Assembly: GCA_024408295.1 (NCBI GenBank)
Contig: JAKSVE010000006.1
Coordinates: forward strand, 1 to 42,757
Source: Bacilli bacterium
Lineage (GTDB): Bacteria; Bacillota_I; Bacilli_A; RFN20; CAG-826
DNA: 42,757 nucleotides
Direction of reading: 5' to 3'
In this document: in pieces, positions 1,830 to 33,146 of the stretch
Layout of the letters: each line of letters starts with the position of its first letter
Position numbering within the stretch: the first letter of the stretch is position 1
Translations under genes and position numbers: made by a program
The notes under the pieces: model-generated
What the model was told of the DNA's origin: nothing
What the model saw: only the letters and a program-made list of their open reading frames with translations
The model's database searches: none

Positions 1830-1984
1830 CTTATAAATCTTTTCATTGATCGTTAAATTATCGTTTTTGATCTACAATGAAAAAGGGAAAAAATAGAGAA
1901 TAGAAATCTTTACAATCTGGAAATACCACAGCAAGAAATAACGCAGGAGATGACTTTTGATTTTTATGCGTCTAAAATGTTTGC

Positions 1985-2584
1985 ATGCATAAAACGATTT
2001 TATTTGACTGTGGTAAAGTGTTGATTGGATTCTCGCGTAAGAAGCTTCTGAATGTTTATGTTGGCGAAGATGAAGAATCTAGGGATTTGATTAACGAAGC
2101 CATATTCAAAGATTGGGGTATGCAGGATAAGGGGATGCCAACAAAAGACTATTACGAGTTAGCAAAGTCAAAACTCCCAGAACGCTTGCATCAGTCAGCC
2201 TATAACATCTTATTTCATTGGAAAGAACAGACTTGGCCTCTTCCTGGAATGATGGAAATTGTCCAACGTTTAAAGGAGAAGGGTCATCAATTGATTTTGT
2301 TATCTAACATGCCTGACACATTCTCATACGACCATGATGATATTGATGTTCTTAAGTATTTCGATGATTTGGTTTTTTCCTTTGTTGTTGGCCTTGCAAA
2401 ACCCGACCCTCAGATTTTCGTCTACACACTAAATAAATTTGCAATAAAACCATCGGATTGCTTGTTTGTTGATGATAACCCAGATAATATTTTGAGTGCG
2501 GAGTCAGTTGGTATCGATGGATACTTATTTGACCCCGAAAATACAGCAAAATTTATTGAATTTGCTGAGAAAAACGAATTATAG
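1985..2584 (+). CDS. HAD-superfamily phosphatase/hydrolase
   Basis: FDCGKVL motif I, LLSN motif II, KPDPQIF motif III, FVDD motif IV. Confidence 0.9.
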   Translation: MHKTILFDCGKVLIGFSRKKLLNVYVGEDEESRDLINEAIFKDWGMQDKGMPTKDYYELAKSKLPERLHQSAYNILFHWKEQTWPLPGMMEIVQRLKEKGHQLILLSNMPDTFSYDHDDIDVLKYFDDLVFSFVVGLAKPDPQIFVYTLNKFAIKPSDCLFVDDNPDNILSAESVGIDGYLFDPENTAKFIEFAEKNEL

Positions 2585-2607
2585 AACAAGTTACTTAAAA
2601 AACTTTT

Positions 2608-2622
2608 GCAACCGATAGTTGC
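2608..2622. promoter_or_regulatory. Palindromic candidate operator upstream of the XRE regulator
   Basis: GCAAC-CGATA-GTTGC, with further GTTG/CAAC half-sites at about 2639-2654. Confidence 0.4.
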
Positions 2623-2699
2623 GAACATGAAAACTAGAGTTGGTAGACGCAACTTGGTTATAAATGTTTAGATATCGTTGCGGCAAGGAGGCCGGGACT

Positions 2700-3446
2700 A
2701 TGAATATTAAAACAGCAGACAGATTATGCACACTCAGAAAGGAACACAACCTTTCTCAGGAGGAGTTAGCAGAGAAACTTGGCGTATCACGTCAGGCAGT
2801 CTCTAAATGGGAAAGAAGCGAGGCATCCCCAGACACTGATAATTTAATTGAACTCGCACACATATACGGAATCTCCCTCGATGAACTCATCAACGGAGAT
2901 GAGGCAATCGAGCTTATCAAGGAAAGCAAGGTCGAAGAAGAGGAAGAGATCAAACCTGATTACCGTTACGAAGACGATGGTTATGTCGTTACTATCTATG
3001 GTGATGAGGCCATCTTGGATGACGGCGTTGAGACAAGAAAATATTCAATCAAGGAACATAGAGCTAAAAAGAACAGAATCCACACAGTCAAAGGAATCGT
3101 TGACTCAATCTTTGTTCTTCTTGCGGTGGCAACATTCTTGATTGCAGGATTCCTTACAAATCAATGGGTAAATTTCTATTTCGTCTTTATTTTGATTCCT
3201 GTTGCCGCATCTATTGTTGAGGCAATCTATAGAAGAAGCATGAAGGCATTCGCCTATCCAGTATTGGTTGCAGCAATCTATTGCGCAATCTCGCAGCCTA
3301 CCGGTTTGTGGCATCCATTATGGATCGTGTTCTTAACAATCCCTGTGTATTACGCAATCGCAAATCCGGTCGACAAGAACAGAAAGACCGATGACTTTGA
3401 AGTCATAGACGATGCCTTGGACGAGATGAGATCCAAAAAGAAATAG
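2700..3446 (+). CDS. XRE-family HTH regulator with C-terminal membrane domain
   Basis: LSQEELAEKLGVSRQAVSKWE HTH_3 motif and about 4 hydrophobic segments. Start moved to ATG 2700, downstream of AAGGAGG. Confidence 0.9.
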   Translation: MNIKTADRLCTLRKEHNLSQEELAEKLGVSRQAVSKWERSEASPDTDNLIELAHIYGISLDELINGDEAIELIKESKVEEEEEIKPDYRYEDDGYVVTIYGDEAILDDGVETRKYSIKEHRAKKNRIHTVKGIVDSIFVLLAVATFLIAGFLTNQWVNFYFVFILIPVAASIVEAIYRRSMKAFAYPVLVAAIYCAISQPTGLWHPLWIVFLTIPVYYAIANPVDKNRKTDDFEVIDDALDEMRSKKK

Positions 3447-3456
3447 TGGTATTCAG

Positions 3457-3488
3457 AAATCGCCGTCGCTTGATGGCGATTTTCTTTT
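3457..3488 (+). terminator. Rho-independent terminator
   Basis: AAATCGCCGTC-GCTT-GATGGCGATTT followed by a T-rich tail. Confidence 0.8.
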
Positions 3489-3519
3489 AATATAATTAAA
3501 ATAAACATATAATACGGAT

Positions 3520-4461
3520 ATGCCATTAATCATTATTTCATCATTTATTTTGTTCTTGTTAGTCGCATTCTTTGTAGGGACCTATATAGTCTATAGGATG
3601 GCCTTCTATAACGATATGAAGAACAAAGAAGAAAGATGGGAACCAATGAAGGGTCCTCAGTATAAAAAATTTGAGGATACGTCTAGAGCGATGATCGCCT
3701 CCTCGCGTCAGATTCCTTACGAGGAAGACATTTATATCAAAGCTAAGGACGGAACTAAATTACATGCACGATTGTATAAGTCGATAGTTGATACTGGTGT
3801 TTTCGCTATCGAGTGCCACGGCTACAAAGACCCAGCTGTAAAAGATTTTTGCGGAGGCCTCGAACAATCGTTGAAGATGAACCATAACGTTCTTCTCATC
3901 GACCACCGCGGACATGGCGAAAGCGGTGGCAGAACAATCTCATTCGGAATTAAAGAAAGATATGATGTCATCGATTGGATAAACTACTTAAACAATAGAT
4001 TCAATTCGCCTGACATCTTGCTCTATGGAATCTCCATGGGCGCATCCACTGTCTTGCTTTGCTCAAACATGAATTTGCCTGCAAATGTCATCGGAATCGT
4101 TGCAGATTGCCCATATTCATCTGCGAAAAGAGAAGTTGTTTGGACTGCTAAAAAGATGGGAGTACCTCCAAGTTTAGGATACCCAGCTTTATTCCTTGGG
4201 GCTGCAATCTACGGGCACTTCGATCTAAGAAAAGGCGAAGTTGCAGAAGCGGTTAAAACAAGCTCAAAGAAGATATTGCTAATCCACGGAACAGATGATC
4301 ACACAGTTCCGTTTGAAATGGCTGAAGAAATATATAACGCCAACAAGGACATGATCACATTCGTCCCGGTTGAAGGTGCGCCTCACGGGCTCTCGTGGAT
4401 GGTGGATAATAAAAAGTACCTAGACTCGCTAGATACTTTCCTTAAATCGATTATGCGCTAA
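3520..4461 (+). CDS. Alpha/beta hydrolase with N-terminal membrane anchor
   Basis: CHGY, DHRGHGES, GISMG nucleophile elbow, IHGTDD and a late His (GAPHG). Confidence 0.9.
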   Translation: MPLIIISSFILFLLVAFFVGTYIVYRMAFYNDMKNKEERWEPMKGPQYKKFEDTSRAMIASSRQIPYEEDIYIKAKDGTKLHARLYKSIVDTGVFAIECHGYKDPAVKDFCGGLEQSLKMNHNVLLIDHRGHGESGGRTISFGIKERYDVIDWINYLNNRFNSPDILLYGISMGASTVLLCSNMNLPANVIGIVADCPYSSAKREVVWTAKKMGVPPSLGYPALFLGAAIYGHFDLRKGEVAEAVKTSSKKILLIHGTDDHTVPFEMAEEIYNANKDMITFVPVEGAPHGLSWMVDNKKYLDSLDTFLKSIMR

Positions 4462-4828
4462 ATGTTGCCAAGAAGATGTAAATCGTTATCTCCAAGATTG
4501 GACACATTGCAACCAACAATATTGGTAACCATAACCACATTTTCTTTGCGCCTGCGCGCTTTGCCTTGTTGTTATGGACTATTGCAAATATGAGAGGGAT
4601 TAAACAGAAACCGGAGCATCCTGCTGTGTAATATAATCCGACGACGAATATGATCGATCCTCCGAGTGCAATGCCAAGTGCTGGATCTGTCGCGTCTCCG
4701 CTAGGGTCGTAATTTGCAATGCTTGCTGCCGAATCAATAAGAAATGTAAGAACGTAGAATAATGCGAAAGCACATGCGATTATGCCGATTATTTCAAAAA
4801 TTCTTCCAAAAACTTTAAGAGCTTTCAT
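4451..4828 (-). CDS. Hypothetical membrane protein (3 TM)
   Basis: 125-aa ORF with three hydrophobic segments and AAGGAG upstream. Confidence 0.7.
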   Translation of the reverse strand: MKALKVFGRIFEIIGIIACAFALFYVLTFLIDSAASIANYDPSGDATDPALGIALGGSIIFVVGLYYTAGCSGFCLIPLIFAIVHNNKAKRAGAKKMWLWLPILLVAMCPILEITIYIFLATFSA

Positions 4829-4895
4829 AACTTAGTTGACTCCTTTCGTAAATATCATAAACCTTTTTCGCTCAAGGTGTTATTATATTGCTACT

Positions 4896-4972
4896 GCGCC
4901 CGTAGCTCAGCTGGATAGAGCACTTCCCTCCTAAGGAAGGGGTCAGCCGTTCGAATCGGCTCGGGCGCGCCA
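4896..4972 (+). tRNA. tRNA-Arg(CCT)
   Basis: Cloverleaf; anticodon arm CTTCC-CTCCTAA-GGAAG; A20 and G73 Arg identity elements; encoded CCA; hairpin-T terminator follows. Confidence 0.95.
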
Positions 4973-5054
4973 CCGCTTTGCGGTTTTTCTTTTTGAAACA
5001 TTGACAAAGGCAATACTCGCTAGTATCTTATTCGTGCACTTAAGTGCAGGATTT

Positions 5055-5130
5055 GGGGCATTAGCTCAGTTGGGAGAGCGCCTCCATGGCATGGAGGAGG
5101 TCATCGGTTCGAGCCCGACATGCTCCACCA
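5055..5130 (+). tRNA. tRNA-Ala(GGC)
   Basis: GGGGCAT/ATGCTCC acceptor stem with G3-U70; arm CCTCC-ATGGCAT-GGAGG; CCA. Confidence 0.95.
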
Positions 5131-5228
5131 AACCGCAATCAACCCTTCTATACGAAGGGTTTTCTTTATTTCTTCTTTCATCAAATTGTTGAATTGGAGT
5201 GCTTAAATATTTATATTTATATTGAGAT

Positions 5229-7781
5229 ATGGCAATTTTAAACAACGCTATAAAAGCAGTAAGCAGATTAAACAACAAACAGAAAGCATCCCTTTTATAC
5301 GGAAATGGTAACTGGGAGACTAATTTAGTTAATAATTCGTCTATCGGATCTGTAGTTATGCATGATGGTCCTTGTGGTCTAAGAATTCCTGAAAAGGGGC
5401 TTCCACCTGCAGGATCGTTTGTTCCTAATGGCGATCCTTCCACTTGCTATCCTGCTCCTTGTCTTGTTGCGTGTTCATGGAATCCAGTTGCAGTTGAAAG
5501 GATGACCTCTTCTTATGCATACGAGGCAAGACTCCATGGTACTGATTTAGTCCTTACCCCTGGAGTTAACATTAAGAGAAATCCTTTATGCGGAAGAAAC
5601 TTCGAGTATTTCTCTGAGGACCCTTTGCTCTCAGGCAAAATGGGCGCTGCATATATTAATGGCCTTCAGAAGAATGGCGTTGGAGCTACTATCAAGCATT
5701 TTGCTGCAAATAACCAGGAGTTTTGTAGATGTGTTTGCTCCTCTGAAGTTGATATGAGGGCACTCAACGAAATCTATTTGAAGCCATTCGAAATTGCTAT
5801 TAAAGAATCTGACCCTTGGGCTGTTATGTGCGCATATAACCTGATTAATGGTGTCCCTGCTTCAGATTACACATATTTGACAAAGAATACTCTGCGTGAC
5901 AAATGGGGATATGATGGAGTTCTTATGAGCGACTGGGGCGCAACTTACGATAGCGTTCTCTCTCACGAAAACGGACTCGATCTTCAGATGCCTTGTTTCG
6001 ATAATCATTCATCCAGAATCGCAAAGGCTGTAAAGAGAAATAAGGTATCGCAATACTCGTTGGATAAATCATCTGAGAGAGTTGCGAATATGTATTTCAA
6101 AACCCTTGCAAAGCCTGAATTGAAGCCTTTTGATACCCATGAGGAAGCAAGAATCATGGCAGAAGAATCCATCGTTTTGCTCAAGAATGACAAAATGAGC
6201 AAAACGGGATATAAGTGTGCTTTGCCATTATCTTCATACAAAAACACTTGTGTCATTGGAGCTTTGGCTAATTACGCTGTGTTCCAGGGCGATGGTTCAA
6301 GTAAGGTTACCGTGGCTCATGGTGTAGCAAAATCTTTTTTGGAAGTTATCAACGAAGGAAAGAATGACGCAGAAAAGGTTCCTTATTGTCAGGGTTACTC
6401 ATATTCTTATGAAAAGGACTGCGAATACTTTGGAATCGACAAAGCTGCTCTAATGTCGCACTTTGATAACGACGAGAAGAAGGTTGGAGAATATCTTGAT
6501 GCGAAGTTTATTGCTGAAGCTTCAAATATGGCTTCTGCTCACGACACCATAATCATTTTTCTTGGTCTTCCTCCACTAGAAGAATCAGAAGGTTTTGACA
6601 GGGCTCATATGCTTCTCGATTCACGCCAAATTACTTTATTTAAAACCATTGCTTCATTAAAAAAGTCTGGTTCTGCAAAGAAAATTATTACAGTTGTCTG
6701 TTGTGGATCGCCTGTCGAACTTTCATTTGCAAATATTTCGGATGCTATTTTGCTAACGTATTTGCCTGGCGAAGCTGGATACGAAGCCCTTGATAATATT
6801 GTTTTAGGACGTGTAACGCCATCGGGTAAGCTTGCCGAATCGTGGCCACTCAAAGGAATGGATGTTCCTAGCTATGATTCATTTGGAAAATTCCGTAGAA
6901 GGGCTTTATATAAGGAAAGTATTTTTGTTGGTTATAGATATTATCTTTCAGCAGGCCGTAATGTGTTGTTCCCGTTTGGATACGGCTTAAGTTACACTAC
7001 TTTTGATTATCTTGATGCATCAATATCGGACGATGAGATAAATAAGGGCGATACAATTAAAGTGTCAGTCACTATTAAGAACTCTGGCAAGTATGATGGT
7101 TCAGAAGTCATTCAAGTGTACTCTTCTTTTAACAACGGAGATGTCGAATTAGACCCTGAATATAATGTTATAAGGCCATCCAAGGAATTGAGGGCTTTCT
7201 ACAAGGTCCATTTAAAGAAAGGCCAGAAGAAAAAGGTTACGATCGAGATTCCTGTAGATAATCTTGCGTATTTCGACCCTGTTACCGATTCTTATGTTTT
7301 GGAAGAAGGGAAATATACCCTCTATATTGCGTCCTCATGCGAAAATGTAAAGAAGTCACTAAATGTTATCGTATCATCCGACGATCAAGTTGTTCCTGCG
7401 GATGTTGATAGTGGTTACTTTAAGTTTGCGAAAGCTGGAATTCACATTGTTCCAAATAAGAACTTCTATTCTCACCTGAATCGTCAAGAGCCCGCAAAGG
7501 ATGAACCTAGAAAGTTCACTGTGCATTCTACATTGAACGATATTAGTAAGACGGTCATCGGTTCTATTATCAAAAATGCTTTAACTAATTCGACATATAA
7601 GAATGTTAAAAACGGCAGCCTTACTGAACAAAATGCCGAGAATTATTTGAAGATGGTTCTCAACTCACCTATATTCTTCATGACATGCGGTGGGATGAAA
7701 GAAAAATACGCTTATTGCATTGTGCATATGGCTAACCATAGATGGCTGAGAGGCTTATTTGCTCTCATAATAGGTCATTAG
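5229..7781 (+). CDS. Glycoside hydrolase family 3 (beta-glucosidase-like) with Fn3-like domain
   Basis: DGPCGLR, PGVNIKRNPLCGRNFEYFSEDP, KHFAANNQE, SDWG nucleophile, FPFGYGLSYT. Confidence 0.95.
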   Translation: MAILNNAIKAVSRLNNKQKASLLYGNGNWETNLVNNSSIGSVVMHDGPCGLRIPEKGLPPAGSFVPNGDPSTCYPAPCLVACSWNPVAVERMTSSYAYEARLHGTDLVLTPGVNIKRNPLCGRNFEYFSEDPLLSGKMGAAYINGLQKNGVGATIKHFAANNQEFCRCVCSSEVDMRALNEIYLKPFEIAIKESDPWAVMCAYNLINGVPASDYTYLTKNTLRDKWGYDGVLMSDWGATYDSVLSHENGLDLQMPCFDNHSSRIAKAVKRNKVSQYSLDKSSERVANMYFKTLAKPELKPFDTHEEARIMAEESIVLLKNDKMSKTGYKCALPLSSYKNTCVIGALANYAVFQGDGSSKVTVAHGVAKSFLEVINEGKNDAEKVPYCQGYSYSYEKDCEYFGIDKAALMSHFDNDEKKVGEYLDAKFIAEASNMASAHDTIIIFLGLPPLEESEGFDRAHMLLDSRQITLFKTIASLKKSGSAKKIITVVCCGSPVELSFANISDAILLTYLPGEAGYEALDNIVLGRVTPSGKLAESWPLKGMDVPSYDSFGKFRRRALYKESIFVGYRYYLSAGRNVLFPFGYGLSYTTFDYLDASISDDEINKGDTIKVSVTIKNSGKYDGSEVIQVYSSFNNGDVELDPEYNVIRPSKELRAFYKVHLKKGQKKKVTIEIPVDNLAYFDPVTDSYVLEEGKYTLYIASSCENVKKSLNVIVSSDDQVVPADVDSGYFKFAKAGIHIVPNKNFYSHLNRQEPAKDEPRKFTVHSTLNDISKTVIGSIIKNALTNSTYKNVKNGSLTEQNAENYLKMVLNSPIFFMTCGGMKEKYAYCIVHMANHRWLRGLFALIIGH

Positions 7782-7816
7782 AGGACGATTAATCTTCTAT
7801 TTGAATAAATTTGCAA

Positions 7817-7900
7817 GCGTCGGTGGCGGAATGGTATACGCGTTGGTCTCAGAAGCCAATGGGGCAACCCTTGTGAGTTCGAGTCTCATCCGGCGCACCA
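7817..7900 (+). tRNA. tRNA-Leu(CAG)
   Basis: Arm TTGGT-CTCAGAA-GCCAA, long variable arm, A73, CCA. Confidence 0.95.
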
Positions 7901-8002
7901 ATTGATAATATAGCATCCTCGAAGGGGTGCTTTTTAAATTATATATAAGTAAATTGTCGCAAAATGACCTAAAATCTTTATACTTTAGTATAATAGGTGC
8001 AT

Positions 8003-8079
8003 GCGCCCGTAGCTCAGCTGGATAGAGTACAAGCCCCCGAAGTTTGTTGTCGGCCGTTCGAATCGGTCCGGGCGCGCCA
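8003..8079 (+). tRNA. tRNA-Arg(CCG), atypical anticodon loop (C33)
   Basis: Cloverleaf; arm CAAGC-CCCCGAA-GTTTG; A20 and G73 present; own TATAAT (7989-7994) and terminator. Confidence 0.85.
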
Positions 8080-8188
8080 CATTACCGGTGTAAATACCGG
8101 TTTTGTTTTATCCATTAAAATAATAGAAAACTGTCCATTAATAGACAAAAGCCTTAACAAATTTTGTTCCTTAATATATTATATTGCT

Positions 8189-8722
8189 ATGGCAAAAATT
8201 GATCGTAGGTTCATCAAAAGCGAAAATGAGATCTTAAAAGCCTTTTCTGCTCTTCTAAATAGGTATGAATTGGCCGATATCTCGATTCAGGATCTTGTAG
8301 AGGAAGCTGATATTAATAAGTCGACTTTTTACCTCCATTATTCCAATTTGGGACAGGTTCTCAACACATTGCAAGATAAGCTGATTACTGATGTTTTTGA
8401 AATTTATCAATCTTCTGATGGCGACTTCTGTCTTTTCTTGGTCCGTCTTATCGATGGCATAAAAAAGAGTAGAAAAATCTATAGAACGGTACTCCTCAAT
8501 TCCACTCAATACTTCTTTGAAAATATATATTCGATTTTTTGGGGATCTTATTCTGAGACTGATTTGAAGAACAAACATTTGGATGTTTCAATTTACTCTC
8601 GCATGTCTCTTATTCACTCCCTTTGCAATATTCTTCTTCTTTGGTGCCAGGGAGGATGTGTTTCTTCTAAAGAGGAAGTTATAGAGCGCCTGAACCGAGA
8701 TATTGAACACTATTTAAAATAG
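8189..8722 (+). CDS. TetR/AcrR-family transcriptional regulator
   Basis: DRR...ISIQDLVEEADINKSTFYLHY HTH. True start is ATG 8189; the upstream ORF extension overlaps the tRNA. Confidence 0.9.
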   Translation: MAKIDRRFIKSENEILKAFSALLNRYELADISIQDLVEEADINKSTFYLHYSNLGQVLNTLQDKLITDVFEIYQSSDGDFCLFLVRLIDGIKKSRKIYRTVLLNSTQYFFENIYSIFWGSYSETDLKNKHLDVSIYSRMSLIHSLCNILLLWCQGGCVSSKEEVIERLNRDIEHYLK

Positions 8723-8763
8723 ATATTTCCTTTTATATAGAAATCGTTTTATAATTTCGGAGC

Positions 8764-8850
8764 GCCCGAATGGTGGAATGGTAGACGCGATGGACTCAAA
8801 ATCCATTATCTGATGAGGATGTGCCGGTTCGAGTCCGGCTTCGGGCACCA
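8764..8850 (+). tRNA. tRNA-Leu(CAA)
   Basis: Arm ATGGA-CTCAAAA-TCCAT, long variable arm, CCA, terminator at about 8862-8893. Confidence 0.95.
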
Positions 8851-8947
8851 TAGAATGAAATAGGTCTGGTTATAGCCAGGCCTTTTCTTTTTTCGTGCAA
8901 TACTAAAGTAGTACGCAAATTATTTGTAATAAGGCTGAGAGGTTCTT

Positions 8948-11852: not shown

Positions 11853-11943
11853 GTTTGCCAAATCATCGGCCTGCTTGCAAACAAATCGGTTTTTCTGATT
11901 CTTCTCCCTAACAATGTTTATTCGTTTGTGATATAAAAATGGT

Positions 11944-13326
11944 ATGTCTATATTAGCAGCATTTATTACACCTCATCCCGTCACTTCCATTCCGGAAATC
12001 GGAAAAGGAGAAGAGGACATTATCTACAAAACCGTCGCGTCTTTAGAAAGAGTTGGCAAAAGGATTGCACAGCTTGAGCCTGATACGATTGTTTTGATTA
12101 GCGCTCACGCAGAATCATATTCTGACTACTTTCAAATTAGTGATGGTGACGTTGCAATCGGGTCTTTGGCGCGTTTTGGTGGGGCTAATATCACTTTTAG
12201 AAATTATTACGACAGACGTTTCGTCAAGGCTCTATGTGAAATGTGTGAAGAGGAAGGCTTCCCTGCAGGAATTGATTCGGAAGTTCACCATTATCTCGAC
12301 CACGGAACGATGATTCCTCTATATTTTATTAATCAGCAATACAGGGCATACAATCTAGTGCGTCTTGGTATATCCGGCACTAGTTTGCATTCTCATTATA
12401 GACTCGGAGAGCTCATCAAAAAGGTGTCGAATAAGCTCGGAAGGAAGACTGTTGTTGTCGCTTCCGGCGATTTATCTCATTGCCTTACCCATGATGCTCC
12501 TTATGGATTTAATGAGATGGGCGTTAAGTATGACACCAGAATGATTAAATCTCTCGAAACTGCCAATTTTATGGATTTATTTGGTTTCGGTGAGGATTTG
12601 ATAGATATTTCGAAGCAGTGTATCCATAGAGCGGCATGTATCATGGCTGGCATTTTGGATAGACAATCAATAGAAACGAAAATCTATTCATATGAAAAAC
12701 CACAGGGTGTTGGACTATGTGTAGCAGAATTTGTCACAGGCGGAATGGATGCCTCTAGAGCGTTTGGCGACATATATCGTTCAAGACAACTTATGGAAGT
12801 GGATAGAGTCAAGCAAAACGAAGACGAGTATGTTAAGTTGGCAAGACAGGCAATCGAGAATTATGTCAAGACCTCCACAAAGCTAAGAATCCCGTCAAAC
12901 ATTCCATCTGAGATGCTTGGGGAGTCCAAAGGAGTATTTGTCACGATAAGACAAAACGGAGCCTTACGCGGCTGTTTAGGCTCAACAAAACCGATAGCCA
13001 AGAATTTGGCACAGGAAATTATCACGAATGCCATGAAAGCTGCGACCGAGGATCCTAGATTCGATGAGTTAAATGAAGAGGACCTCCCATATATCTTTAT
13101 ATCGGTCGATGTTATTTATGATCTGATCGAGGTTAAGTCTGTTACGGATCTTGATCCAAAGATTTATGGAGTGGTGGTGGAGCAAGGGAAACGCCACGCT
13201 ACTCTTCTTCCTGGACTTGCAAGTGTCACTACTTCAGAAGAGCAACTCGCTCTCGCAAAAAGAAAAGCAGGCATTCCTCAAAACGAGAAATGCAGGCTTT
13301 ATAGATTTAGTGTTCAGCATCATTAA
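11944..13326 (+). CDS. Fused LigB/MEMO-like and AMMECR1 domain protein (AmmeMemoRadiSam B-A type)
   Basis: N-terminal PHP, DHG and SGDLSH; C-terminal GVFVT, LRGCLG, DPRF and LLP. Confidence 0.88.
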   Translation: MSILAAFITPHPVTSIPEIGKGEEDIIYKTVASLERVGKRIAQLEPDTIVLISAHAESYSDYFQISDGDVAIGSLARFGGANITFRNYYDRRFVKALCEMCEEEGFPAGIDSEVHHYLDHGTMIPLYFINQQYRAYNLVRLGISGTSLHSHYRLGELIKKVSNKLGRKTVVVASGDLSHCLTHDAPYGFNEMGVKYDTRMIKSLETANFMDLFGFGEDLIDISKQCIHRAACIMAGILDRQSIETKIYSYEKPQGVGLCVAEFVTGGMDASRAFGDIYRSRQLMEVDRVKQNEDEYVKLARQAIENYVKTSTKLRIPSNIPSEMLGESKGVFVTIRQNGALRGCLGSTKPIAKNLAQEIITNAMKAATEDPRFDELNEEDLPYIFISVDVIYDLIEVKSVTDLDPKIYGVVVEQGKRHATLLPGLASVTTSEEQLALAKRKAGIPQNEKCRLYRFSVQHH

Positions 13327-13760
13327 TCTCGCTTCTTGCGGGATTTTTTAACGCGCAAAACCCTCATCATTTCGATTTTTTGCACAGAATTCTCCTCGAT
13401 TATTTCTCCGCCGAGATGCTCTGTAAACCCTAGTTTCTTGTAGTGTTTTTCGAACTCTGGGGCCACTCTGATTAAAGAGTTCATCCCACCGATTTCTCTG
13501 ATTTTGGTTTCCGCAAATCTCAAGGTATATTGCGCAATCATCTGATGCCTTAGTGGCTGAAGGACAGCAATGTTTTGCACCAAGTAGTTTTCAGGGTCTA
13601 CTTCGACTATTTCGCAACAGGAAATAGGCGTGCTATTTAACATCACAGTTAGATAAATGGTGTATGTCTCCTTGTTTGGTTCAATTTCATTCTTGAAGAC
13701 GGAGTTCCACACTGAGAGAAACTCGTTGGATGGCTTATATTCGAATTTCGGTGTTACCAT
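13323..13760 (-). CDS. GNAT-family acetyltransferase-like protein
   Basis: IAVLQPLRHQMIA (degenerate motif A) and HYKKLGF. Start moved to ATG 13760. Confidence 0.7.
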   Translation of the reverse strand: MVTPKFEYKPSNEFLSVWNSVFKNEIEPNKETYTIYLTVMLNSTPISCCEIVEVDPENYLVQNIAVLQPLRHQMIAQYTLRFAETKIREIGGMNSLIRVAPEFEKHYKKLGFTEHLGGEIIEENSVQKIEMMRVLRVKKSRKKRD

Positions 13761-13833
13761 GCATGCATTGTATTCTATTTTTAGGAGACATGTCCAAACT
13801 TTTATAAAGTTGAGTTTGTGATACACTAATGGC

Positions 13834-14457
13834 ATGAACATCAAGAACCTTTTTAAAGATTATAGAAAACTGCTCGCAATCACATTTGCGATTTTAGGAG
13901 CTGCATTTGTTGTTGCTGATTTTGGTGTAAGTATCACCATGTCCTATATGGCTCATGACTATTCGTCTAATGTCGTGTTCACGTTCATAAACTTCGCTAT
14001 TATGTGTTTGGTCTGCTTTCATTTGCTAAACGGTAATATAAATAGCAATTATTCTGCCTATCGTGGGATGGCCATGTTTATTTTCCTTATTACCTTTGGC
14101 TATGCTGAAACCGTATTGATCAACGCTCCATTACTGGTTGCTAGTATTATCAATTTCGATATTATCACCCTTGCCGTTTTGCTTCTCATGATTGGTGCGG
14201 TAGTGGTTGGCATTCTATCTTATATTCGCGTTAGGAGATTCCTTTATAGAAGAAACGTCACATATAGATCTCTATTTTGGCTCACATTTGCGTTTACTGC
14301 GATTGTGGTTGTTTCCTCGCTACTCCTTACGGTTCTTCTGATAATACTCAACGGTTCGTTTAAACCAAGTTATCTGGATTATGCAAGCTTAGGCGATGCT
14401 TTCCTATCGATATCGGTCTTGTTTACCGTCACAAGACTTAGTCCTAGATATTATTAG
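13834..14457 (+). CDS. Hypothetical multi-pass membrane protein
   Basis: 207 aa, about 6 hydrophobic segments. Confidence 0.75.
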   Translation: MNIKNLFKDYRKLLAITFAILGAAFVVADFGVSITMSYMAHDYSSNVVFTFINFAIMCLVCFHLLNGNINSNYSAYRGMAMFIFLITFGYAETVLINAPLLVASIINFDIITLAVLLLMIGAVVVGILSYIRVRRFLYRRNVTYRSLFWLTFAFTAIVVVSSLLLTVLLIILNGSFKPSYLDYASLGDAFLSISVLFTVTRLSPRYY

Positions 14458-14500: not shown

Positions 14501-14576
14501 GCCGACTTAGCTCAGTTGGTAGAGCAGCTCCCTCGTAAAGAGCAGGTCGCTGGTTCGAGTCCGGTAGTCGGCACCA
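14501..14576 (+). tRNA. tRNA-Thr(CGT)
   Basis: Cloverleaf; loop CTCGTAA; CCA; terminator at about 14583-14607. Confidence 0.93.
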
Positions 14577-14687
14577 TTTAAGAAATCAGCCGCAAGGTTG
14601 ATTTTTTATAATTTGCTCTTGTCTAATTAATCTTTAGTGCATATAATACCTTTCGCGTTAATCGAGAGGTTAACGGAACATACATCT

Positions 14688-14763
14688 GGGTGTTTAGCTC
14701 AGCTGGGAGAGCATCTGTTTGACGTACAGAAGGTCAGGGGTTCGATTCCCTTAGCACCCACCA
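14688..14763 (+). tRNA. tRNA-Val(GAC)
   Basis: Arm TCTGT-TTGACGT-ACAGA; CCA; terminator at about 14776-14800. Confidence 0.95.
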
Positions 14764-14865
14764 GATGAATAAGATAACGTCCGAGAGGACGTTTTTTCTT
14801 TGTTTAGCTCTTTATTGAGCTGAACAATTGTTTTACAATAGGTCACGAGTTCTAGGAGAAAAATT

Positions 14866-15105
14866 ATGCCAGTCACAAAAGCAGCACCAACAAAGGTCTA
14901 TCATGTTTCTCAGACCGAAGATAAGACAATGTGGAGAGTCACACTTGCCGGAGGATCAAAACTCGATAGCGGCAAAGCTAAGATCATAAAGACTTTTAAG
15001 ACACAGAAAGAAGCAATCGCATACGCTGAATCTCTTGGCGATGGAGAGAACACCGTTTTAGTTCACAAGAAGGGCTCAAATGGCGGTGGCATCCGTAAGC
15101 ACTAA
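14866..15105 (+). CDS. DUF2188-like small basic protein
   Basis: YHVS...WRV...FKTQKEAIAYA...LVHKK pattern; AGGAG Shine-Dalgarno site. Confidence 0.8.
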   Translation: MPVTKAAPTKVYHVSQTEDKTMWRVTLAGGSKLDSGKAKIIKTFKTQKEAIAYAESLGDGENTVLVHKKGSNGGGIRKH

Positions 15106-15144
15106 TCTATTTTAATCCAAAGACCTTTATATTGAGGTTTTTGT

Positions 15145-15218
15145 GCACCTGTAATTTAGTGGTAGAATTCCATCTTCCCAAGTTGGCTGTACGGGTTCGA
15201 TTCCCGCCAGGTGCTCCA
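15145..15218 (+). tRNA. tRNA-Gly(CCC)
   Basis: Loop TTCCCAA, U73, CCA; one mismatch each in the anticodon and T stems. Confidence 0.9.
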
Positions 15219-15254: not shown

Positions 15255-15791
15255 TTATTTTCTCGATTTTTTCTTGTTGTGTTTCTCTTTTCTTTCTTCT
15301 CTAGACTTTATTCTTTTTGCGAGTTTTGCCGTCGCTATTATGAATGAGACAAGACCAAATATTATAGAGATTACGGAGAAGCTTGCGACGATGATGTCGT
15401 ATAAAGGTTTTCCGATGAGGTTGAATAGAAGCATTATCGGCACAATCACCTTAATTACTTTGATTAAATATTTGGTGTTGTAGACGGTTTCCTTTATGGC
15501 CCAATCATCTTTCCCTTTCAGTCTTGCTCTTAGAAGGATGTAGTAGAGGAGCAGCACAACTAAATACATAGAGGATGCCACCATGAGTATTATGACTGGG
15601 ATGGTAAAACCACTAGATAGAATTTTGAAAAGAATGCCTATCAGAGAGAAAGCAAGTGTAGCCAATAATATTGATGCGCTCCATATGAATTTGATGATGT
15701 TTATTCCGTTGGAAAACGCCTTTTTTGGCTTTGTTATAAACATGTCGAGTATGGAATTGTCTTCTCTTTCTTCCGCAATTTCTTTTCTCAT
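15255..15791 (-). CDS. Hypothetical membrane protein (4 TM)
   Basis: Four hydrophobic segments, basic tail, -10 box upstream. Confidence 0.7.
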   Translation of the reverse strand: MRKEIAEEREDNSILDMFITKPKKAFSNGINIIKFIWSASILLATLAFSLIGILFKILSSGFTIPVIILMVASSMYLVVLLLYYILLRARLKGKDDWAIKETVYNTKYLIKVIKVIVPIMLLFNLIGKPLYDIIVASFSVISIIFGLVSFIIATAKLAKRIKSREERKEKHNKKKSRK

Positions 15792-15891
15792 AGTGAAATT
15801 ATCTCATAATCTCTATTTATAGTAGAGCGTTATTATTTTATGTTTACAAACGAATGTAATTTGTATAAATTACCACGTGGAGGAAACACAT

Positions 15892-19527: not shown

Positions 19528-19529
19528 AA

Positions 19530-26682: not shown

Positions 26683-26737
26683 TGGGCGTGCTCTTTAATT
26701 AATCAAAAGGCTGTTCGCAATAATACTTAATCTAAAT

Positions 26738-26814
26738 ATTCCCGTATCTTGCCTAAAACAAAACCCCCGATTATCTCGAGGGTTTTTAGTTTTACTGGAG
26801 CAAGATACGGGAAT
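26738..26814. repeat. Long inverted repeat joining the tRNA-Gly 3' end, its terminator and an inverted 15-bp copy
   Basis: ATTCCCGTATCTTGC (26738-26752) is the exact reverse complement of 26800-26814; the terminator hairpin lies between them. Confidence 0.9.
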
Positions 26815-26869
26815 CGGACCCGCGTGTCGACCTTGGCAAGGTCGCGTTCTACCATTGAACTAATCCTGC
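26796..26869 (-). tRNA. tRNA-Gly(GCC)
   Basis: Minus-strand arm CGACC-TTGCCAA-GGTCG, U73, CCA; the T loop reads TCCGATT. Confidence 0.93.
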
Positions 26870-26983
26870 AACACGTCGCCTTTCAGCGTGGACTATTATA
26901 ATAATCTAATTTGATATTGGCAAGTGGTAAAATCAACTTTATGAGAATATAATCTTAGAGGCTCCATTTAGGAGGAGATATTT

Positions 26984-28636
26984 ATGGCAGACTACAAAGA
27001 TTTAGCAAACCTTATGTTCCCAGACATCACTGAGACAGTAGATGATTTAGAAAAGAGATACCCAGCAAGAAATTTGCCTGAAGGCGCTCAGGTCACACGT
27101 TTTGCACCTTCCCCAACAGGATTCCTTCATACTGGTTCTTTGTTCACTGCGCTAGTAGGATTCAAATACGCTAAGCAGTCTGGTGGTGTTTATATGTTCA
27201 GACTAGAGGATACAGACACCAAGAGAACAATTGCAGGTTCTGGCGATGAGTTAATCGACCAACTTGGAAACTTCGGCATTGTTGCAGACGAAGGCTACTG
27301 GCCAGACGGCGATAGAGGCGCATATGGCCCATATCAGCAGTCAAAGAGGCGCGATATCTACCGCACTGTTATCAAGCACTTGGTGGAGCAGGGCAAGGCA
27401 TATCCTGATTTCTGCACCGCTGAGGATTTAGAGAAGATCAGAGCATACCAGGAAGCCAATAAGATTCTCCCTGGATACTATGGCGAGTTTGCTAGAGATA
27501 GAAACCTTTCAGTTGATGAGCAGATTGCTAGAATCAACAATGGCGAGCCATATGTCGTTAGATACAAATCACACGGAGACCACAACAACAAAGTCTCATT
27601 CGTAGATGCTATCAGAGGCAAGCTCGATATCGCTGAAAATGATGTCGACGTTGTCATCCTCAAGGGTGATGGCCTCCCAACATATCACTTCGCACATGTT
27701 GTTGATGACCACTTCATGAGAACCACATTAGTTTCCCGTGGTGAGGAGTGGATCCCTTCAACTCCAATTCACTTGGATTTATTCTCGGCTTTAGGTTGGG
27801 AACCAACAAAGTATGCCCACCTACCAGTTATCATGAAGCTTGATAACGGCAATAAGCGTAAATTATCCAAGAGAAAAGATCCTGAGGCTGCAGTGTCCTA
27901 TTTCTTGCAGGAAGGATACCCAACAAAAGGATTGCTCGTCTACCTCATGAACATCGCTAACTCCAACTTCGAGGAGTGGACAATCGCAAATAAGGACTTC
28001 GAGTTATCACACTTCCAGTTCTCATTCGAAAAGATGTCATTAGACGGCGCTTTGTTCGACATCGATAAGCTCCAATATTTCTGCCGTGAAGTATTAGGCG
28101 CTGAACACGCTGATACAATCGTTCCAGCAGCAAAGGCTTGGGCAAAGGAAAACAATGAGAAATTATATGCAAAAATCTCTGCAGATGAGGCATATGTTTC
28201 CCGTATCGTTAACATCGATAAGGATAAGCAGAATCCACGTAAGGACTTCGCAAACTACGCTGAAATCGAAACAAAGACAAGATTCTTCTACGATGAGGAC
28301 TTCGCTCCAATCAAAGCAGCGGGATTCCCATTCAATGAAAAGTTCGATAAGGAATTCGTCAAGTCATTCTTAGCAGACTGCGCTGAAAACATGATCTACG
28401 GCGTAGATGAGATGACATGGTGGAATGGTGTCAAAGACTTGGCTGCAAAGAATGGATTCGCAACCAACAACAAAGAGTACAAAGCAAATCCAACTGCATT
28501 CAAAGGCAACACTGGAGATGCAGCTGAATTAATCCGTATCGCTCTTACCGGATCAAAGATGGCTCCAAACCTTCATGAGGTCATTGAAATTCTCGGCAAG
28601 GACAGAGTTGTTGCTCGTTTATTGTCAGCAATCTAA
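26984..28636 (+). CDS. gltX: Glutamyl-tRNA synthetase
   Basis: TRFAPSPTGFLHTG, RLEDTD, PTYHFAHVVDDH, RGEEW, KLSKR. Confidence 0.96.
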   Translation: MADYKDLANLMFPDITETVDDLEKRYPARNLPEGAQVTRFAPSPTGFLHTGSLFTALVGFKYAKQSGGVYMFRLEDTDTKRTIAGSGDELIDQLGNFGIVADEGYWPDGDRGAYGPYQQSKRRDIYRTVIKHLVEQGKAYPDFCTAEDLEKIRAYQEANKILPGYYGEFARDRNLSVDEQIARINNGEPYVVRYKSHGDHNNKVSFVDAIRGKLDIAENDVDVVILKGDGLPTYHFAHVVDDHFMRTTLVSRGEEWIPSTPIHLDLFSALGWEPTKYAHLPVIMKLDNGNKRKLSKRKDPEAAVSYFLQEGYPTKGLLVYLMNIANSNFEEWTIANKDFELSHFQFSFEKMSLDGALFDIDKLQYFCREVLGAEHADTIVPAAKAWAKENNEKLYAKISADEAYVSRIVNIDKDKQNPRKDFANYAEIETKTRFFYDEDFAPIKAAGFPFNEKFDKEFVKSFLADCAENMIYGVDEMTWWNGVKDLAAKNGFATNNKEYKANPTAFKGNTGDAAELIRIALTGSKMAPNLHEVIEILGKDRVVARLLSAI

Positions 28637-28684
28637 TTAAAATCTTGCAAAGCGATAACCTTAATGGTTTAATATCGCTTGCGC

Positions 28685-28759
28685 GGCCCTATCGTCAAGC
28701 GGTTAAGACACCGCCCTCTCAAGGCGGGTTCCCGAGTTCGAATCTCGGTGGGGTCACCA
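28685..28759 (+). tRNA. tRNA-Glu(CTC)
   Basis: Arm CCGCC-CTCTCAA-GGCGG; CCA; own TTGCAA-17-TTTAAT promoter; terminator at 28771-28793. Confidence 0.95.
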
Positions 28760-28854
28760 ACAAACAAATTACGAGGCCCAGCCTCGTTTTTTTGTGGTGA
28801 ACACATAGAGATGAGAAGAGGGAACCGCAAGAGGCGGTGCAAATATTCGCATTT

Positions 28855-29700: not shown

Positions 29701-29889
29701 AAAAAGATCCTCCTAATACTTACTAGACGGAAAATCGGATTTTTTACCAAAAACTTTTCAAAATTGCCATTTTTTGCCGCGTTTTTGCGAAACTTTTTAT
29801 CCAAGAACCATATTTAACACATTAAATTGTGCCAAACGATACCCTGTGCATTAAAAAAAGACAGGCGGCCCTGTCTTAGTTTTGATTGC

Positions 29890-30303
29890 TTATTCGAAGT
29901 AGGTGCAGCTGATATTTATCGAATCATCGATATTGTCGTGTCTCCACAATATATCGTAATGGTTGAGCTTTCCATCAGCATTGAATCCCCAACTGAAATG
30001 GTACTCACAAATACCCTCGCTTCCAGGTGCATCTTCGATAACATTACAGTAGTAGTGGTTATAAATTTCAGCTCCCTTTCCGGCATCTTCTTCGAAATGG
30101 AATGTTGGATTTGTTGAATTGTAGAAGTAGTCGATGCAGTCATCCATGGTGTATGTATCAATGACGTACATCCATTCCTTGAACTTTCTTTCTCCGTTGA
30201 CATCCCAAACCTCAATGATCTCCATAAGCGACTTTAAATATGAGCAGGATACCAAAGTAAACATGCTAGCAACACCAATTGTTATCTTTCCGAGTTTGTT
30301 CAT
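29890..30303 (-). CDS. Small hypothetical lipoprotein
   Basis: Lipobox LVSC; GGAGG Shine-Dalgarno site; hairpin with A run at about 29853-29877 acts as a minus-strand terminator. Confidence 0.75.
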   Translation of the reverse strand: MNKLGKITIGVASMFTLVSCSYLKSLMEIIEVWDVNGERKFKEWMYVIDTYTMDDCIDYFYNSTNPTFHFEEDAGKGAEIYNHYYCNVIEDAPGSEGICEYHFSWGFNADGKLNHYDILWRHDNIDDSINISCTYFE

Positions 30304-30467
30304 GTTAAATCCTCCGCAAAAAGTAAACTAATCTTGAAAATATCGTTTATTATCTAAGGGATAATCAGGACAAATAATCGAAAACACAGGTCTGTTAAGA
30401 GGGTTAAGAGATGATTCTTCAGTCCTCTTGGATTTTCATTTAGCTTAAGCGTGTGTATAATGTGCGC

Positions 30468-32504
30468 ATGAAGAAAAAGACGTCTCTCCTATTAACCTTG
30501 ACCTCAATCATGGGCGCTACATCGTTAGCCGCCTGCAGTTTTGAATTGGAAGGATCATCAATAGAACTCTCTCATCATGAGCACGCTTCTCAAGTAACTC
30601 CTAGTTTGTCAGTAGAGGTGTTAAAGGATTTCGAGGGTCTTACATTCAATGACGAGACAGTCCCCTATGATGGCGCTGCCCATAGCTTATCTGTTAATAA
30701 CCTCCCTGAAGGAGCAGTAGCGGTCTACACCGGAAACAATCAGATCGACCCAGGTACATACACGGTTACCGCAGTAATCTCAAAAGATGGATACAACACC
30801 AAAACCATGGTGGCTAAATTGACCATCACCGCAGCTAAATTCAGCGGTATTTCTTTCAAAGACGACACCTTCATCTACGACGGCAAATACCACAGCATCA
30901 AAGTCGAAGGCGCACCAAGCTTTGCAACAGTTAAGTATTCCGGAAACGACAAGAAAGATATCGGCGATTATCAAGTCACCGCAACAATATCAGCCAAAGG
31001 ATATGAAACCATTACCCTGAAAGCCACAATGCACATCATCAAAGACCCTAGTATCAAACCAATAACTGGAGTCACATTTGAAGATGCTACATTCGAGTAC
31101 GACGGCAAACCACATTCAATCGAAGTAAAAGGCATGCCAAGTGATGCAACGGTTAGATATTCGAACAACAACCAACGTGACAGAGGAACCTATAGAGTAA
31201 CCGCAACAATTACGGGCGAAAAATATGAAACTTTAACCCTCACAGCCACACTCTCAATCATCAATCCATATATCAAAGATCTACAATTTACAGACGTAAC
31301 AATGATCGAAGGAAAGCCAATTAAGCTCAAAGTTGCAGGGAAATTGCCGACAAGAGCAGAGGTTTCGTACTCAATCAAAGGCTACAGCAGCCTAGAACAA
31401 GTAACCGCTCCTGGAACATATGAAGTATACGCAACCGTCACCGCTCCAAACTATTCTCCAACCGTCTTAAAAGCCAATTTGACAATCATCAAAAACGACT
31501 TCTATGGAGTCGACACAAACAAGAACGCATTCCAGTTCACCAGCGACACAAAATACCAAGAACTCAAGGATGAACTCCTCAAAGGAAACTACACCTGCGA
31601 GATTTCAGTTGAAGATGACTATTTCTATCCGGATGGCACCACACGCCACCAATATGGCAATGCTATCACCCATTATGTTGATGGCGATAAATATGTCATG
31701 CATTATGACTTAAGAGATCCAACTGCAGAAGACGAGGATTTCCTCCAGGAACAATGGACGTTCGCAGAAGTGGTAGGGGATTATTCATTCTCGACCACCA
31801 CGATGTTTAGCGCATTCACTGAAGGCATCGGCAAAGCCCCAAAAGACTCATATAAAGAGACCTACCAAATGAGAAGCGCCATGGAGGCTCTATCCCACAT
31901 CTCCGAATCAAGCGATGGTGGATTCGAGGATGGCACAACAGGCGGATATAGAACCAGTTATGGAACTCCAATGATTGACATAGCTAATAACGAAATCAGA
32001 ATCACCGTCCGCAGACACTACTTCCATACGGAATTCAATCACGATGAAATGGAAGTTTATACGCTGAAAAACATCGGCAATACCAAGGTAAATATCCCTG
32101 AAATCGCTAGAGGAAAAGCGGAAGAAGCCAATTCCTATTCAAATGAATCATTCACTCAAAACGGAGTCGATTATACGTGCCTAGAAAGCTTTGACACGGG
32201 AGAATTGAGCTGGAGAGCAAATATCTCTTTCGATGCCGCTGACGTTGAGTACTTGCCTCACGGTGATTACCTTGTCTACGCACAAATCTATGGCGTCCCG
32301 GTCACTACTTTCGACTACGATTATTACGATTCAAGATATGAATTAGATCTTACAGGATACACGCTCTGTTTCTTCTTCGACGACGACGGAATCTATAAAG
32401 GGGATTATGCAAGCCTCGGCTCTATCCCTTTCTCCAACCTAAGGATAATCAACGCTCATTTTGAGGTTTATAACGGCACTGCGAAATATTACGGTGAGTG
32501 GTAA
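30468..32504 (+). CDS. Lipoprotein with four MBG-like Ig repeats and an acidic C-terminal region
   Basis: Lipobox LAAC; F-x-D...YDGxxHSxxV...GxYxVTAxI repeats of about 70 aa. Start moved to ATG 30468. Confidence 0.85.
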   Translation: MKKKTSLLLTLTSIMGATSLAACSFELEGSSIELSHHEHASQVTPSLSVEVLKDFEGLTFNDETVPYDGAAHSLSVNNLPEGAVAVYTGNNQIDPGTYTVTAVISKDGYNTKTMVAKLTITAAKFSGISFKDDTFIYDGKYHSIKVEGAPSFATVKYSGNDKKDIGDYQVTATISAKGYETITLKATMHIIKDPSIKPITGVTFEDATFEYDGKPHSIEVKGMPSDATVRYSNNNQRDRGTYRVTATITGEKYETLTLTATLSIINPYIKDLQFTDVTMIEGKPIKLKVAGKLPTRAEVSYSIKGYSSLEQVTAPGTYEVYATVTAPNYSPTVLKANLTIIKNDFYGVDTNKNAFQFTSDTKYQELKDELLKGNYTCEISVEDDYFYPDGTTRHQYGNAITHYVDGDKYVMHYDLRDPTAEDEDFLQEQWTFAEVVGDYSFSTTTMFSAFTEGIGKAPKDSYKETYQMRSAMEALSHISESSDGGFEDGTTGGYRTSYGTPMIDIANNEIRITVRRHYFHTEFNHDEMEVYTLKNIGNTKVNIPEIARGKAEEANSYSNESFTQNGVDYTCLESFDTGELSWRANISFDAADVEYLPHGDYLVYAQIYGVPVTTFDYDYYDSRYELDLTGYTLCFFFDDDGIYKGDYASLGSIPFSNLRIINAHFEVYNGTAKYYGEW

Positions 32505-32506
32505 GG

Positions 32507-32956
32507 CTACTTATCGAGTTCGGTCAAAATGTCATTGACGCAGCGCCTTAGTTCATCAATCACTAATTGGTAATTATCAGAATACCAAGGATCTTCAATC
32601 TCGTAAATGCCTTTGCTGTATGCGAAAACAGGAAGGCATTTTTTGCTACTATCATTTACAAGATAGGAGAGGATTCTTCTATTGGATTCATCCATGTAGA
32701 AGAGACGGTCACAACCGTCCAAATCCGCCTGAGTCAAGCGTCTTGCAGAGTGTCTGATAAAAGGAATTCCATTGGCTCTCAAAGCCGCTTTCATAGGGGG
32801 ATAAATGTCATTTCCAATCTCTTCTAATGACAAAGCTAAAGAAGTGGTTTCGAACTTGCTTTCGAGACCACTTTTCTTTATCTCATCTCTGAATATCATC
32901 TCGGCAGCAGGCGACCTGCAAATAGAACCGTGGCACACAAAAATTACTTTAATCAT
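32507..32956 (-). CDS. Low-molecular-weight protein-tyrosine phosphatase
   Basis: FVCHGSICRSP P-loop; IEDPWY. Confidence 0.92.
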   Translation of the reverse strand: MIKVIFVCHGSICRSPAAEMIFRDEIKKSGLESKFETTSLALSLEEIGNDIYPPMKAALRANGIPFIRHSARRLTQADLDGCDRLFYMDESNRRILSYLVNDSSKKCLPVFAYSKGIYEIEDPWYSDNYQLVIDELRRCVNDILTELDK

Positions 32957-33146
32957 GCTCTAATAATCCAGAAAATAACGCAGTTTTGCAATGATATTTG
33001 TGAAGATTTGTGGGAAAATGCTAGAAAACAATAATAAAATGACGATATTTGAAAACCAATAAAAATAGGGCTCATTTAAGGAAAATCTTATCGATTATTT
33101 ATATAATTTTTATGAACAATTGAACTATTCAGTGTATTTTCTTGTG

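Follow-up and report, generated by a model that had tools for sequence, protein, structure and literature searches.

How is translation begun at genes whose ATG follows a promoter -10 box by six nucleotides and has no Shine-Dalgarno (SD) site in front of it? The question is raised by a 42,757-nucleotide stretch of DNA from a Bacilli bacterium, the window of this report, which is one whole 42.8-kb contig (C37; JAKSVE010000006.1) of a 40-contig, 1.02-Mb metagenome-assembled genome (MAG; G000, GCA_024408295.1). An earlier note on this stretch had marked nine such sites, and a tenth with a gap of five nucleotides, and read them as starts of leaderless mRNAs, used by a quarter to a third of the coding sequences (CDSs) and mostly by accessory genes. 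We propose that sigma-A promoters in this genome that start transcription at the A of the ATG give leaderless mRNAs, and that these form a second initiation regime in an otherwise SD-dominated genome, at about 10% of genes and about 16% of operon heads, housekeeping genes included. We put the probability of this reading at roughly 0.8. The core of the earlier note, an SD-free class with the -10 box at -12 to -7, is thereby retained; its estimate of the extent, the accessory role and one of its sites, at 5229, are not.

In the mechanism that we envisage, the promoters would be ordinary sigma-A (sigma-70-type) promoters whose -10 hexamer lies at -12 to -7, counted from the A of the start codon. 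With the box in that position transcription should begin at the A of the ATG, so that RNA polymerase would produce an mRNA without a 5' untranslated region and without an SD site, and ribosomes would initiate straight on the 5'-terminal AUG by the leaderless pathway. Where transcription begins and how ribosomes are loaded are what we infer from the sequence.

Genome-wide enrichment of the six-nucleotide gap

Genes were called across the MAG with a self-built model (three-periodic, fourth-order Markov, with gap filling), which is crude and had no outside validation; it returned 864 genes, with 91% of the genome coding, of which 849 have a closed 5' end. A histogram of TANNNT positions relative to start codons, the check that the earlier note had suggested, has a sharp peak at a gap of 6 nt between hexamer and start codon. 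The hexamer occurs there at 58 of 667 first-ATG starts (8.7%), whereas gaps 14 to 40 average 17.6 and the other gaps hold 4 to 25 each. When the 60 nt upstream of the starts were shuffled 300 times with dinucleotides preserved, the mean was 17.5 (standard deviation 4.4, maximum 33), so that the enrichment over shuffled AT-rich sequence, on which the note had staked its reading, is present with a z of 9.2. An earlier gene set of 771 starts, from a previous caller that missed atypical genes, had 56 at gap 6 (Poisson p 4e-11 against the positional baseline), and GGAG, GAGG or AGGA occurred in only 2 of these 56 sites.

The spacing is tied to ATG. No peak at gap 6 appears in the MAG at first GTG codons (4/78), first TTG codons (4/103) or deep internal ATGs (53/5381). 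When a positional matrix spanning -17 to -1 was slid over the upstream regions, it gave 56 matches at offset 0 and 1 to 13 at each offset from 1 to 69. SD motifs nonetheless prevail upstream of the MAG's starts, most often 5-11 nt before them.

The 58 sites also carry promoter features that played no part in choosing them. The base at -1 is a pyrimidine at 55 sites (95%; C 30, T 25, A 2, G 1) versus 60% of 609 other ATG starts (Fisher p 7e-9); the usual context of a transcription start site is a pyrimidine at -1 and A at +1. A TGn extension precedes 25.9% of the 58 hexamers; among 555 TANNNT hexamers elsewhere upstream the figure is 8.3% (p 2e-4). A -35 element that matches at 4/6 positions or more, at a spacer of 16-18 nt, accompanies 43% versus 19.5% (p 1.5e-4), and the base directly 3' of the hexamer is A in 65.5%. 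These genes stand farther from their upstream neighbours (median gap 79 nt versus 23 nt), and the upstream neighbour is more often divergent (34.5% versus 19%).

Extent of the class and the genes in it

At a matrix threshold of 3.96, which 0.2% of coding ATGs exceed, 85 of the 849 genes (10.0%) are positive, where 3.7 false positives are expected on the coding-ATG null; at the 1% tail instead there are 113 candidate starts with 18 expected. Under a strict definition of operon heads (a divergent neighbour or a gap >50 nt; 426 heads), 68 heads are positive (16%). An upstream neighbour was called for 81 candidates; 72 of these are operon heads at a looser cut of >30 nt and nine are not, which agrees with the expectation that the arrangement belongs to first or stand-alone genes. 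An SD site lies at one of the first candidate starts of 555/849 genes, and 209/849 have neither an SD site nor the leaderless signal.

The share of a quarter to a third holds for the window only, where 8 of 33 genes (24%; binomial p 0.014, post hoc) exceed the threshold, or 9 with the borderline site at 1985. The many single-gene units of the window, separated by tRNA genes, plausibly account for this excess. Nor are the genes accessory: matches to NCBIfam models place uvrA, aconitase, cysS, fba, mnmG, recN, recG, plsX, rpsP, ung, secG, spx, tadA and gmk in the class. A small-genome, SD-dominated member of the Bacilli would thus operate a second regime of initiation, of sizeable extent, that serves core genes.

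Among the first genes that are SD-led, upstream matrix matches form a low hump at offsets of 12-25 nt, and many leadered mRNAs of this genome may therefore have leaders hardly longer than the SD site.

The sites in the window

All ten -10 sites are present in the window exactly as described, with a gap of 6 nt at nine and of 5 nt at 5229; the TGn prefixes at 11944, 13834 and 15791 and the TTGCAA-17-GATTAT promoter at 32956 are also correct. None has an SD site, taken as GGAG, GAGG or AGGA within -18 to -5, and the base at -1 is C or T at 10/10. The matrix passes 8/10, with scores of 6.3-11.3; 1985 is borderline and 5229 fails. The putative leaderless promoters and their genes are as follows.

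1950-1987, plus strand: borderline promoter of a HAD-hydrolase gene (CDS 1985-2584; Pfam HAD match); -35-like ATGACT 1950-1955, 17-nt spacer, -10 TAAAAT 1973-1978, C at -1, ATG 1985
3485-3522, plus strand: promoter of an alpha/beta-hydrolase gene (CDS 3520-4461); -10 TATAAT 3508-3513, ATG 3520; matrix 7.1, no SD
5218-5231, plus strand: TATATT 5218-5223, 5 nt before ATG 5229 of a GH3 glycosidase (CDS 5229-7781); without support as a leaderless start
8154-8191, plus strand: promoter, with corrected start, of a small TetR-like gene (CDS 8189-8722); -35 TTAACA 8154-8159, 17-nt spacer, -10 TATTAT 8177-8182, ATG 8189; matrix 10.4
11908-11946, plus strand: promoter of a LigB-AMMECR1 fusion (CDS 11944-13326; Pfam and NCBIfam); TGA+TATAAA 11929-11937, ATG 11944; matrix 8.5, no SD
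13758-13836, both strands: divergent leaderless pair over one 73-bp intergenic region (13761-13833)
13323-13760, minus strand: first gene of the pair; ATG 13760, -10 TACAAT 13767-13772, -35 TGGACA 13791-13796; matrix 6.3
13834-14457, plus strand: second gene of the pair; ATG 13834, TGA+TACACT 13819-13827; matrix 11.3
15789-15826, minus strand: promoter of a 178-amino-acid gene of unassigned function (CDS 15255-15791); TGA+GATAAT 15798-15806, ATG 15791; matrix 10.0, no SD
30433-30470, plus strand: promoter, with corrected start, of a lipoprotein-like MBG-domain gene (CDS 30468-32504); -10 TATAAT 30456-30461, ATG 30468; matrix 9.05
32954-32991, minus strand: promoter of a low-molecular-weight phosphotyrosine phosphatase gene (CDS 32507-32956); -35 TTGCAA 32986-32991, 17-nt spacer, -10 GATTAT 32963-32968, ATG 32956; matrix 7.5, no SD

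Site 1985 scores 3.1, just below the threshold (null tail 0.003), and has no SD. Site 5229 we do not accept as a leaderless start: it scores -0.9 and a gap of 5 is unenriched genome-wide (5/667), although it lacks an SD site as well. At 3520 the nearest orthologue read (L082, 42% identity) carries TACAAT at the identical 6-nt gap, and remoter homologues show SD sites or different spacings; in this comparison, which used plus-strand rows only, most matches are distant paralogues. The 73 bp between 13760 on the minus strand and 13834 on the plus strand barely fit two back-to-back promoters and so leave no room for leaders; a Pfam search found no match for either of these small genes (13323-13760, 13834-14457). 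The name TetR-like for the 8189 gene is a reading of its N-terminus, the gene having no family match, and in the product of the 32956 gene position 1 of the Pfam LMWPc model is aligned at residue 4.

The contrast that had been drawn with SD-led genes of the window is clear at gltX (26984) and at the lipoprotein-like genes 9732, 22709, 30303 and 41170, to which the GlnRS-type gene (start 1747) can be added; for moxR the SD site depends on a choice of start. The probable moxR start (34613-34720) is ATG 34718, which has a weak AGGAA and comes right after the upstream stop, rather than TTG 34613. Similarly, ATG 2700 behind AAGGAGG is probably the true start of a helix-turn-helix gene (2664-2702), rather than 2664.

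Start codons and N-termini

The start codons of the class agree with protein families. An NCBIfam match (E <=1e-10) was obtained for 43 of the 85 candidate proteins, and in 16 of these 43 the best model starts at protein residue <=5 and model position <=5. The proteins aligned from the N-terminus include UvrA, aconitase, CysRS, Fba, MnmG, RecN, PlsX, S16, Spx, Gmk, YbaK and others, with RecN, S16 and Spx aligned 1 to 1. In-frame downstream starts with an SD site are no commoner among the candidates (11/85) than among SD-led controls (59/392).

Three starts in the window had been moved downstream of those in the open reading frame (ORF) track, and each of the moves is upheld. The long ORF 7997-8722 traverses tRNA-Arg 8003-8079; none of its 47 homologous matches begins before residue 35, and most begin at residues 55-73, where ATG 8189 is residue 65. 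The N-termini of the 8189 homologues align <=9 nt from this ATG. At 13760, which is residue 29 of the longer frame, 3/3 homologues begin at query residue 29-45, and their open frames have 141-155 amino acids. At 30468 a lipoprotein signal, MKKKTSLLL...LAAC as read from the sequence, opens at the ATG, and the ORF-track GTG 30453 would put the TATAAT (30456-30461) within the coding sequence. Gene callers that expect an SD site may extend or misplace the starts of such genes, of which ORFs 7997, 13844 and 30453 of the window are examples; misplaced starts would in turn distort the calling of signal peptides, operons and promoters in MAGs of this gut lineage.

Alternative explanations

Could the sites be there by chance? 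TA-rich hexamers are frequent in AT-rich intergenic DNA and favourable cases may have been picked: the window is 58% A+T (42% G+C), any given upstream position carries TANNNT about 2.6% of the time, and the inclusion of 5229 and the borderline 1985 points to some cherry-picking. Such an explanation is hardly credible when set against the excess over dinucleotide shuffles and over the positional baseline of the first gene set, the co-occurrence of TGn, -35 and -1 pyrimidine with the sites, and a signal that is found in a congener of 55% G+C and is missing from a genome of 29% G+C. Chance is accordingly rejected for the class as a whole by the shuffles and the co-occurring features; single sites may still be chance matches. 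Also very unlikely, in our view, is that the start codons are wrong, the true ones lying downstream behind SD sites and the -10 boxes serving short-leadered mRNAs. In its favour, 27 of the 85 have another candidate start ahead of them in their ORF, and the family model begins deep in some proteins (DegV at residue 60, guanine deaminase at residue 44). Yet the frequency of downstream SD-bearing starts matches that of the controls, the 16 best models run from the first residues of both protein and model, and homologues back 8189 and 13760.

The -10 promoters may, finally, be real and their mRNAs not strictly leaderless, with transcription starting 1-4 nt off the A or chiefly from promoters farther upstream, and translation taking an SD-independent leadered route as in many Mycoplasma transcripts. 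Gaps 7 and 8 are mildly raised, at 17 and 18 versus 4-5 at gaps 4-5 and 9-11 at gaps 9-10, and cysS orthologues in the genus show -10-like hexamers, judged by eye, at gaps 7-9. The 209 genes that have neither signal also imply that another SD-free route must exist, and in Mycoplasma pneumoniae leaderless-like transcripts are defined by a 5' untranslated region of <=8 nt (PMC10568206). We still consider this unlikely as an account of the class: the peak is one nucleotide wide and at the canonical -12 to -7, a pyrimidine precedes the A at 55 of 58 sites, and GTG and TTG starts show no peak, a restriction for which a leadered route would have no need.

Several points do weigh against the proposal that sigma-A promoters here give leaderless mRNAs. 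The lack of SD sites follows in part from the geometry, since the -10 box, at -12 to -7, takes up the place of the SD, and a loose SD rule is also satisfied by 8 of the 85 candidates. Starts deduced from the DNA, as ours are, would be compatible with leaders of 1-3 nt or with extra upstream promoters. The matrix scores the same sites on which it was trained, genes and starts come from our own crude caller, and the estimate of 3.7 false positives, taken from coding ATGs, is probably low for AT-rich intergenic DNA. One match in the window, ATG 38470 (38453-38472), scores 5.6 in front of a VWA-domain gene of the Bat/MoxR operon, where it overlaps the upstream gene by 23 nt; lying inside an operon, this match probably marks a promoter there or is simply a false positive. 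The completeness of the MAG is 64%, and a search of its contigs with RF00177 found no 16S rRNA gene, the source of the anti-SD tail. The leaderless arrangement of cysS, moreover, is not conserved within the genus.

Distribution among relatives

In a congener (G009, 55% G+C, 400 kb) the gap-6 peak is present at both ATG (20/236) and GTG (11/53) starts, with 1/62 at TTG; the sharp GTG peak suggests that leaderless GUG initiation is in use there. The spx and cysS orthologues of G009 (among loci L107-L126) are examples of GTG starts at gap 6. Mycobacterial leaderless mRNAs are said, in work by Shell et al. of 2015 in PLoS Genet, to begin with AUG or GUG; the GTG peak of G009 is similar, and the window's own MAG has no clear one (4/78). 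A genome from another family of the order (G028, 29% G+C) shows no peak, with 4/287.

For a wider view we counted the marker TAWAAT-N5-Y-ATG and expressed the number as a ratio to the average obtained when the motif is shifted to gaps 9-12. This shifted-gap control replaced a reverse-pattern control, which was dropped because its ratios were confounded by G+C. The marker detects only exact gap-6 sites with a near-consensus -10 box, and the comparison is a description rather than a test, since related genomes are not independent and other gaps escape it. The signal peaks in the window's genus, where the ratio is 2.41 (33 genomes; 1199 versus 497) and is >=2 in 26 of the 33 genomes. Across the order (301 genomes) it is patchy, with family ratios of 1.60 (f1), 1.60 (f3), 1.38 (f4), 1.19 (f7), 1.10 (f5), 0.93 (f2), 0.90 (f8) and 0.84 (f6). 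A sample of 109 genomes (>=90% complete) from the class's other orders does not show it: their ratios have a median of 1.00, an interquartile range of 0.87-1.16 and a maximum of 1.65, none reaching 2. A ratio near 1 in the other orders still allows variable short leaders as in Mycoplasma, because the marker sees gap 6 only. The arrangement is thus largely a property of one lineage, and the background claim that leaderless starts are uncommon elsewhere in the class agrees with these ratios as well as with Zheng et al. 2011 and the GeneMarkS-2 paper.

Within the genus individual sites turn over. Among 19 cysS orthologues (loci L213-L242, which include other families), 4 have the leaderless arrangement at gap 6, 8 are SD-led and 7 are of neither kind, and this mixture of states indicates that individual leaderless sites are evolutionarily labile. 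Several of the last seven are the rows in which the -10-like hexamer, by eye, lies 7-9 nt from the start, and the SD-led rows include one GTG start whose -10 box is at gap 6. Of 9 cysS genes from the order's other families, 8 are SD-led; no leader of T-box size is apparent within the 40 nt upstream that were read. Orthologues of the 85 candidates in the 400-kb samples gave only 14 usable pairs, too few to interpret (leaderless in 2/8 in G009 and 0/6 in G028). Close relatives that differ in whether a gene is SD-led or leaderless form a natural comparative set for the gain and loss of leaderless starts.

The genus and much of the order may have raised leaderless initiation above the level of the 109 genomes of other orders. 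Together with the rapid switching of orthologous housekeeping genes such as cysS, GUG starts in high-GC congeners and tRNA -10 boxes 8-11 nt from the mature end, this might reflect a change, specific to the lineage, in the machinery of initiation or in the spacing from promoter to product. A streamlined genome would then have lost its 5' leaders generally, and the sites would be more than isolated promoters. We offer this tentatively and regard it as more doubtful than not.

Comparison with known systems

Zheng et al. 2011 (BMC Genomics 12:361, PMC3160421) predicted leaderless genes from a TANNNT-type signal in 56 of 209 Firmicutes genomes, at a mean of 4.2% of genes (range 2.4-16.6%) and concentrated in Lactococcus-Streptococcus, Oenococcus-Leuconostoc and Mycoplasma. 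Their 'TA-like' (Pribnow) genes, with the signal about 10 nt upstream, share with ours the TANNNT core at a fixed distance and the lack of an SD site, and their low-GC Firmicutes show TAtAAT with a TG peak, as the MAG does. The MAG's 10% falls in the upper part of their Firmicutes range. Unlike their set, the MAG's lineage is an uncultured small-genome gut order of Bacilli, which the 2011 set did not include, and the arrangement is patchy between its families.

Group C of GeneMarkS-2 (Lomsadze et al. 2018, Genome Res 28:1079, PMC6028130) consists mostly of Actinobacteria (773/859) and Deinococcus-Thermus; of 1064 Firmicutes only 36 fall in it. Group C genomes have a Pribnow box 6-8 nt from the start of operon-first genes and SD sites at internal and leadered first genes, a mixed pattern that resembles the MAG's. 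Leaderless transcripts reportedly make up 25-50% in group C bacteria, in contrast to the 68/426 operon heads (16%) that our own matrix yields. In M. pneumoniae (PMC10568206, Mol Syst Biol 2023), 16% of transcripts are leaderless-like by experiment (5' untranslated region <=8 nt) and are translated as efficiently as leadered ones, and SD sites occur in 8.1% of genes. M. pneumoniae is, like the MAG, genome-reduced and part of the wider Bacilli/Mollicutes radiation; it differs in that SD sites are almost unused there, whereas the MAG is SD-dominated (555/849 genes) and uses the standard code. What we describe is a known kind of organisation in a new lineage, at the upper end for Firmicutes, and involves no new mechanism; the predicted leaderless arrangement, at about one gene in ten, is unusually frequent relative to related bacteria.

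The contig and its other genes

The standard code keeps long ORFs of the MAG open, and TGA is the stop codon in 32 of 431 long ORFs. The nearest records to the GluRS of the window are uncultured Bacilli MAGs from animal gut, the best at 91% identity. Family searches with the window's proteins returned a CdaA-type cyclase, a MoxR/DUF58/BatA/VWA operon and hydrolases, and several proteins have no family match. A GlnRS-type synthetase (83-1747; Gln/Glu class Ic C-terminal domains) and GluRS (26984-28636) are both encoded on the contig; many Bacilli are not known to have GlnRS.

Searched against Rfam with gathering thresholds, the window gave tRNAs alone; neither a riboswitch nor a leader element was found ahead of the ten cited genes. 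Ten tRNA genes stand singly or loosely paired between protein genes, with no single cluster, and split the contig into many short transcription units. They lie in the following regions.

4896-5130: tRNA gene region
7817-8850: tRNA gene region
14501-15218: tRNA gene region
26796-26869: tRNA gene region
28685-28759: tRNA gene region

The tRNA-Arg (ccg) gene at 8003-8079 (7989-8079 with its promoter, plus strand) has a TATAAT at 7989-7994, 8 nt before the mature 5' end. ATG 8001 at this promoter is a matrix match, yet opens an ORF of only three codons. Before the mature 5' ends of 28 tRNA genes of the MAG, TANNNT occurs 3, 4, 3 and 3 times at gaps 8, 9, 10 and 11 and 0-2 times at each gap from 0 to 7, some genes being counted at more than one gap, which suggests that the 5' leaders of these tRNAs may be just a few nucleotides long.

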